Part shown: positions 29,880-32,576 of the stretch, in pieces | Numbering within the stretch: the first letter of the stretch is position 1 | How the letters are laid out: the number at the start of each line of letters is the position of its first letter | Sequence record: PQ666542 | Source of the DNA: Shigella phage sb4 | Strand: one strand, 5' to 3' | Length of the DNA: 64,000 nucleotides | The notes under the pieces: model-generated | Database searches by the model: none | Told to the model about the DNA's origin: nothing | Seen by the model: the letters and a program-made list of their open reading frames with translations, nothing else | Position numbers and translations under genes: made by a program

Positions 29880-32576
29880 TCAGCCAAACAGGAAGTCTAA
29901 CGAAGCTTTTTCCTCATAGTCCATACCTGCCGATTCACACATACCAGCAAGTGGTTTAACAAACGATTTTTGGAACAAAGTTGAGTAGTCAATCCAAGAC
30001 AGTACGTCAGAACGAATTTCTTTTGGAAGTTCTGTGCCTGATGGCCAAGCAATGCACTTGTCACCAAATGGATTTCCCTCGCGTAATGGAAGAACCATTA
30101 CTTTATTTCCATCCAAAATTGGAGCTACACCTAAACCGCTAACAGCTCGACGATAAGTTAGCACACCACGAATATGGAACGGACATTTAAATCCTGGCCA
30201 ACCTTTATCGTCGTATTTCGCTATATCATTCGCAGTTTTTACTTCAGCAATAACTTTATAGTCAAGTTGACGATATTCTTTCTCAAAGTTCTTGTAGTAT
30301 TCTTGGACAGACTCTTCACCTTCCTGAAGAATACGACGAATACTTTCTTCGTGAGCTTCTTGTACTGCTTTTGGCGTTGAACTCTGTTGAGTTTCCATAC
30401 CCATGATTTTTAGATGCGGTTCGGCAAATCGCTTATCTTCCATATCATAAACGTTCAGAGCATAACGTTTTTTCGCTTTCCAAAATCCACCAACACCCTT
30501 TGAACCAAGCGGAGGGCAAGAAATAGCTTCACGGTCAATATGCATTAGATGTTCGCGGTTATTCATATAATCACACAACTCACGATATGCAACATCAATC
30601 ATAGGTTCCATCTTTTTCTTACCAAACTGATTCATGAATTCAACTAAATCATTTTGTTCTTTAAAGCGATCAAGACCTACTTTTTCAATAACTTTATCTA
30701 CACAAACATATACCGAATCAGTATCACCCGCTGCGATGTAATCTTCACCATTAGTTCCACATACTTTATATAGATACTCATTAATTTTACGAGCAATCCA
30801 CTGAATACCGACTTGACCGAAAATTGTGATAGCAGTAGCATTTCGCAAATCATAGTAACGGAAATGAATAATACCAAGAGCACCATAAAGACTGTTAATA
30901 AGAATTTTACGGTTCAGCTGATTTGTGTTAGCAAGTGTAGCAGCTTTTTCACATTCTTCAATCAGACTGTTAAGAACAGATTCGGTGTAATTCGATAATT
31001 CGTTTAAGAAATCATCGCTAAACTTAACATATCGTTCAACTTCTGGTTTAGTTGAGCAAGTCCCTGCGCCTTTCATAATAATCTTTTTAATAGCTTCGGC
31101 ATTCATTTCTTCCGCGAACATTTTCTTTTTCCAATCTTTACGCTGGAAAAATACTTTAGCGATTTCCTTTGGAATGATACCTTCTTGGTGCTTATCATAC
31201 ATCCATCCATTCGGAGAGCAAGAATATTCATCACTTGGCTTAGGAGCTGTTCCTGCGATATATTCATGAATTGGATGAACTTTAAAATGCCCACGAATAG
31301 TCTCAGGACTAATAATAACCTGACGAATAATGCTAGGATACAGAGACGTCAAGTCAAAACTCATTATGTATCGTCGAGCAATCTGTTTAGGTTCGAACAC
31401 AAATGCACCTGGAAAACTCTGTTTAACGTGCGAACCTTGTTGAGGAATAACCTTCTGTTCACCTTTCAGTGAGTTAAAAAAATTAGCATCCCAAGTTTTA
31501 ATAGGACTCATTACACCAGAAAAAGGCATTTTAGCGTAATAAGACATACTTAAAACTAGATCGATAAACCCACGAAGTTTATCAATTGCTTGAACTGATT
31601 CTACGTCAATGATGTTATAACTAATGTATCGTTGATGATTAGTCTCACGAAGTTTATTAATAGGACCATCATATGGTAATTTACCTTTTTTGGTTTCATG
31701 TTGAGCAACTGATTCCAAAGAGAACGATGGCAAATTAGTAAATGCGAATTTCTTGTACAAATCTAAATAATCAAGAATAGATACGCCATCAATAGAATAA
31801 ATTTCTTTGCTACCGTACATATTTTGAATTAGTTTAGAATTTACTCGACCGATTGGAGAGAAGCGTTTCATACTACGTTCACCGAGAACCATTTTAACAC
31901 GATTCATGATATACGGAACGTCAAATCCCTCAATATTCCAACCAGTAAAAATAGCAGGTCGTTTCTGTTCCCAGAGATTAATATATTCCATGATCATATC
32001 ACGCTCATTATAGAATGGCATATAAATTACTCGGTCAAGAATTTATTGAGGAACTTCATCACCACCATCACAGTCAAGCTTAGCAGCTAACTTTGCATCC
32101 CATTTTGATACTGAACCGTACATTGAATTCAACAAATCAAAGACGTAAAAACGGTCGTCAATTGAATCATAATGAGTGATAGCATCAATTTCATATTCTG
32201 CTTTCATTGGGTCAGGAAATTTATCACCAGTAACCACAGTGTCACAGTTAGCTACACGAACAAATTTTCGGTCATAAACAATTTCTGAACCATATGTATC
32301 ACTGATATAAGCGAGTTTAAAATCGTTCATACCGAGAGCTTCGAGACCGATGTCTTCCATTCGCTTCATCCAGTCTCGTGCATCTTTCATTGATGGAAAT
32401 TTTTGAGGAGCGCAATTTTTACCATACATGTCTTTGTACTTTGACTCTTCCGTACAATGCCTAAACGTAGTAGGGAGATATTCTACTTCACGAGTTCGTT
32501 CCTTTCCATTTTCATCAATATAACGCTCAACAATATTATTTCCGACTGTTTCGATAGAGATATAAAATTCTTTCAT
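29880..32576 (-). CDS. 43: DNA polymerase gp43 (family B); in-frame TAA at 32043-32045
   Basis: track ORFs 32043..32576 and 29880..32021 in same frame; 899 codons = T4 gp43 898 aa; DTDS and YGDTDS-like motifs. Confidence 0.9.

Follow-up and report, generated by a model that had tools for sequence, protein, structure and literature searches.

Interrupted forms of gene 43, the DNA polymerase gene of T4-like phages, are known from two kinds of system. Nonsense mutants of T4 gene 43 are classical laboratory tools; these amber and ochre mutants have a one-base in-frame stop in an essential polymerase gene, the stop is a lone lesion in an otherwise intact genome, and they are handled on suppressor hosts. 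In the Aeromonas phages 25 and 44RR, the polymerase coding sequence lies in two ORFs, 43A and 43B, which are separated by an inserted homing-endonuclease (seg) gene or by an untranslated spacer, and the parts of this split gp43 co-purify as an active enzyme (PMC2988022). A third comparison is offered by sister records from one study of four Shigella phages from Kolkata lake water, with accessions PQ666539 to PQ666542, which were sequenced on NovaSeq, assembled with SKESA, and annotated with Prokka (PMC11993411). In two of these records, sb1 (PQ666539) and sb2 (PQ666540), gene 43 was also broken by private stops and annotated as two CDS, but the stops were at other codons than in our sequence (E197 and E203 in sb2, K502 and E853 in sb1). 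All four of them were G>T or A>T changes, with G>T in 3/4. Unlike these records, sb3 had an intact gene 43.

The window, which means the whole 64-kb stretch of DNA that was analysed, has its start coordinate, its gene coordinates, and its error signature in common with the sb records. On these grounds it is probably part of the fourth genome of that study (TMC4, PQ666542). From base 1 it was colinear with the Shigella phages sb2 and pSs-1 (KM501444), and the identity was 97.1–97.2% over 50 kb. Gene 43 had the same coordinates in sb2 as in the window (Table 1). DNA matches to the gene were found in 638 phage records, 622 of which covered at least 80% of the query; the top match was Escherichia phage UGKSEcP1 with 97.5% identity, and identity to T4 (NC_000866) was 95.2%. 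The gene was 2697 nt long, without gaps, in all six sequences compared (window, T4, pSs-1, UGKSEcP1, sb1, and sb2).

A sequence-only reading of this DNA had taken the two ORFs of the locus for one frame of 899 codons split by a TAA, and translation confirmed it: both ORFs share one reading frame, and the translation of the whole gene has a sole internal stop, preceded by ...GGDEVPQ and followed by ILDRVIYMPFYNERD... The same reading had placed Glu at this position in T4. Gap-free alignment bore this out, since the homologous codon was GAA in T4, and also in pSs-1, UGKSEcP1, sb1, and sb2. The N-terminal 177 amino acids aligned one to one with the T4 gp43 structures 9e5y and 1noy (E about 1e-115), and the downstream ORF contained the Pfam domains DNA_pol_B_exo1 and DNA_pol_B. 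Positions 140–242 of the DNA_pol_B_exo1 profile fell at residues 3–105 of the downstream ORF, so the stop cuts within the exonuclease domain. Met186 and the bases upstream of it were normal internal gene 43 sequence in all homologues, and the downstream ORF beginning there is mechanical, not an evolved restart. The gene therefore has the full-length similarity and the exonuclease and polymerase domains of a T4-type gp43, but its frame is interrupted at codon 178 and its Exo I D-x-E motif is altered (E114V), and both of these departures are attributed to sequence error.

Table 1 Coordinates of gene 43 and of damaged genes in the window
Feature	Position	Strand	Remarks
Gene 43, family B DNA polymerase, T4-like	29880..32576	-	899 codons, colinear and gap-free relative to T4
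Upstream fragment	32043..32576	-	177 codons and stop; N-terminal domain and Exo I motif region (I113T, E114V)
Codons 113–114	32235..32240	-	Ile113Thr and Glu114Val; Ile-Glu in T4, pSs-1, UGKSEcP1, sb1, and sb2
Codon 114, Val	32235..32237	-	private transversion; Glu in T4, pSs-1, UGKSEcP1, sb1, and sb2; Exo I D-x-E
In-frame TAA, codon 178	32045..32043	-	private G>T (coding strand), GAA (Glu) to TAA
Downstream ORF	29880..32021	-	713 codons from Met186; remaining exonuclease domain and polymerase domain
Clamp-loader gene 62	within 33025..34549	-	two stops, TGA at 33456 and TAA at 33162
Clamp-loader gene 44	within 33025..34549	-	TAA at 33817
nrdD	about 45015..46830	-	1-nt deletion

The stop was found in no other phage that we searched. 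A 54-nt query with the exact TAA context had no identical match in 491 phage records, where the best match was 98.1% (one mismatch), and an exact-pattern search of IMG/VR returned 0 contigs for the TAA context and 6 contigs for the GAA control pattern. A homologue split at codon 178, which would have spoken against the sequence-only reading, was seen neither among the 491 records nor in IMG/VR.

The TAA was not the only private change in the gene. Protein-altering changes made up 23 of the 40 private changes of gene 43 in the window, whereas pSs-1 had 1 such change among 17 and T4 had 4 among 55. They included the neighboring pair at codons 113 and 114 (Table 1); E170D and D189Y were further private changes, and codon 421 was struck twice. 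The carboxylates of the Exo I D-x-E motif (D112/E114 in T4) are required for proofreading, and, judging from the T4 D112/E114 exonuclease mutants, E114V would be expected to act as an exonuclease-defective mutator allele. If true, I113T/E114V would mean that the phage carries such an allele, but the pair most likely belongs to the general error load of the window.

To score this load, the 127 annotated CDS of the colinear pSs-1 were projected onto the window. This analysis gave 32 premature stops, indels in 7 CDS, and a lost stop codon in 2, and 93 CDS were intact. The stops were 28 TAA and 4 TGA in 60,129 coding nt, and they replaced eight different residues (Glu, Lys, Leu, Ser, Gly, Gln, Arg, and Tyr). 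Judged by length, 6 of the 7 CDS with indels were frame-broken. Relative to pSs-1 and sb2, the frame-breaking indels were of 1–2 nt and lay in nrdD and in the CDS matching pSs-1 1652-1810, 16518-17264, 17980-18603 (modB), 19664-20149, and 56389-57123; the CDS matching pSs-1 51653-52675 had a 6-nt in-frame length difference, which may be natural. The two lost stop codons (TAA>AAA and TAA>CAA) were in the CDS matching pSs-1 10991-11410 and 12908-13408.

The damaged genes include 39 (topoisomerase), rIIA (two stops), dda, 43, 44, 62, 49 (endonuclease VII), and nrdD, and the damage extended to a CDS that bears the label "exonuclease subunit 1" in the sb2 annotation. The clamp-loader genes 62 and 44 adjoin gene 43, and between them they held three stops (Table 1). 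ARAGORN found no tRNA gene within the window. At a nonsense rate of 32 stops per 60,129 coding nt, 1.4 stops are expected in a gene of 2697 nt, and one or more would occur with a probability of 0.76, so the gene 43 stop was not beyond chance in this window. A phage with such a lesion set could not replicate on any host, and for this reason the gene 43 stop is best explained as an error of the deposited sequence.

The substitutions pointed in the same direction. From a four-way alignment of the window, sb2, sb3, and pSs-1 over about 50 kb, 663 substitutions were private to the window, with 323 transitions and 340 transversions. The lineage-specific transition/transversion ratio was 0.95 in the window, versus 2.8 in sb2, 4.7 in sb3, and 8.1 in pSs-1. 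The surplus in the window consisted of T>A, A>T, C>A, and G>T and amounted to some 300 transversions per 50 kb. By codon position 1/2/3, the window-private transitions numbered 54/35/257 and look like ordinary evolutionary divergence, whereas the transversions numbered 97/80/114 and were nearly indifferent to codon position.

The coding transversions (n = 281) were then divided by effect. Observed were 70 synonymous, 192 missense, and 19 nonsense changes, while 40, 215, and 26.5 were expected without selection. With a natural background modelled on the pSs-1 lineage (42 synonymous, 34 missense, and 0 nonsense) taken off, the remainder by arithmetic was about 28, 158, and 19, and the neutral expectation for that remainder was about 29, 157, and 19. 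This match of the background-corrected remainder with neutral proportions indicated that the surplus changes were never exposed to selection. As expected of errors, then, the changes were private, were scattered across all genes, took no account of codon position, and fell into neutral proportions of synonymous, missense, and nonsense. The density of transversions was fairly even along the whole window (22–61 per 4 kb), and no obvious sequence motif was seen in the listed 11-nt contexts of the errors. Clustering of errors was also considered as evidence and was set aside: the private transversions were about 2.5-fold clustered, but the natural changes of pSs-1 were clustered equally or more.

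Based on comparison with related phages, we put at about 0.93 the probability that the TAA in gene 43 is a sequencing or assembly error within an error-laden deposited sequence. In this explanation, the record would be a T4-like (Tequatrovirus) genome sequence, with the window as its first 64 kb, in which about 0.5–0.6% of the bases would be erroneous. The errors would be mainly transversions toward A or T plus a few 1–2 nt indels, and the TAA at codon 178 would be one of them, GAA (Glu) having been miscalled by a G>T change. Because this stop is one of about 32 scattered stops and comes together with several frameshifts, error rather than biology would be its origin, and the polymerase of the real phage is almost certainly intact, with 898 amino acids. 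Of the sequence-only reading, the single G>T change from GAA to TAA in the essential gene 43 stands. What it implied, a meaningful ochre mutation, does not: 31 more stops, indels, and selection-free changes surround this one, gene 43 itself has 23 private amino acid changes including Glu114Val, and genes 44, 62, 39, and 49 are damaged.

The sister records showed that the window is not alone. A surplus of C>A/G>T was likewise present in sb2, and the error load of the window was about threefold that of sb2 (340 versus 102 private transversions in 50 kb; sb1 was compared over gene 43 only). The quality problem is thus one that extends to several deposited genomes of the Kolkata study. NovaSeq data assembled with SKESA normally give an accurate consensus, which counts against an error rate of 0.5%. 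T4-like phages carry glucosyl-hydroxymethylcytosine DNA, and one possible source of the errors is poor effective coverage of such DNA following enzymatic fragmentation and PCR. The stop at codon 178 is most probably an artefact of sequence quality and not a biological feature, and its value is that of a data-quality warning: the window, sb1, and sb2 hold many false stops and frameshifts, and these make gene calls unreliable, with split polymerases, extra "hypothetical proteins," and effects on comparative and codon-usage statistics.

Among the other explanations, the one that survives best, although it is unlikely, is that noise was added in silico to a clean phage sequence, or that the sequence is the consensus of a mutagenised or mutator (E114V) population. 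The substitution spectrum is odd for Illumina data, E114V is presumably a mutator allele, and in-silico noise would look identical to laboratory error. However, the public records sb1 and sb2 show stops of the same G>T/C>A type, so the signature is present in the deposited data of the study, and the consensus of a population would remain wild type at each rare mutant site. We infer that sequencing or assembly, instead of in-silico alteration, was the cause; on any of these accounts, the stop would have no functional meaning.

It is very unlikely that the phage is viable with a genuine ochre mutation in gene 43, as in the classical conditional-lethal situation, and that a host or phage suppressor tRNA reads through the stop. 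In favor of this, a single base separates GAA from TAA, gene 43 is full-length and colinear in all other respects, and the classical T4 mutants also have a one-base stop; but those are lone lesions, and the 127 CDS of the window have 32 premature stops, with indels in 7 CDS and a lost stop codon in 2. The 31 further stops include 4 TGA that an ochre suppressor could not read, other essential genes (44, 62, 39, and 49) are damaged, and the substitutions show no sign of selection. The window offers no tRNA gene that could serve as suppressor. As for the host, the phages are lake-water isolates that were propagated on Shigella flexneri, and the available text of the study mentions no suppressor strain (PMC11993411). 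It is just as improbable that the TAA, and perhaps other stops with it, is truly in the DNA and that the phage survives because its Shigella host efficiently suppresses or reads through the stops, or else as a heavily mutated population that an exonuclease-defective (E114V) mutator polymerase has generated and that complementation sustains. A real stop in gene 43 would amount to a conditional-lethal allele of the ordinary kind, and that would likewise not be new; if the other 31 stops were real too, something biological and very strange would be at work.

Reassignment of TAA to a sense codon deserves next to no credence. Some large gut phages recode TAG or TGA, and in the window TAA accounts for 28 of the 32 internal stops. 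But this excess follows from A/T-directed errors on the abundant codons GAA, AAA, TTA, and TCA, and the internal TAAs replace six residues (Glu, Lys, Leu, Ser, Gln, and Tyr). TAA also terminates 68 of the 127 window genes, about as many as the 72 in pSs-1, internal TAAs at conserved sites in common with relatives were not seen, and again a suppressor tRNA is lacking within the window. Since TAA still ends 68/127 genes and the replaced residues are varied, recoding is excluded; with both TAA and TGA among the stops, the terminators retained, and the window free of tRNA genes, neither recoding nor a single suppressor rescues the sequence.

It is equally far-fetched that gene 43 consists by nature of two cistrons with products that come together again, as 43A and 43B do in the Aeromonas phages 25 and 44RR. 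The likeness goes no further than two ORFs of 177 and 713 codons in one frame, and against it there is no insert or spacer between the parts in a gene of the same 2697 nt as T4, the cut within the exonuclease domain separates Exo I from the remainder of the Pfam exonuclease profile, the split is not common to relatives (none with the TAA among the 491 records or the IMG/VR contigs), and the "restart" at Met186, with its upstream bases, is conserved ordinary gene sequence.

Two short intra-genomic repeats were also noted in the window. The 67-nt repeat at 54571..54637 was 98.5% identical to sb2 around 3226..3292 (3224..3290 in pSs-1), and the 90-nt repeat at 56002..56091 was 88.9% identical to pSs-1 29689..29778, which lies just downstream of gene 43. 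As far as they can be placed by the annotation of pSs-1, these repeats are mostly intergenic.
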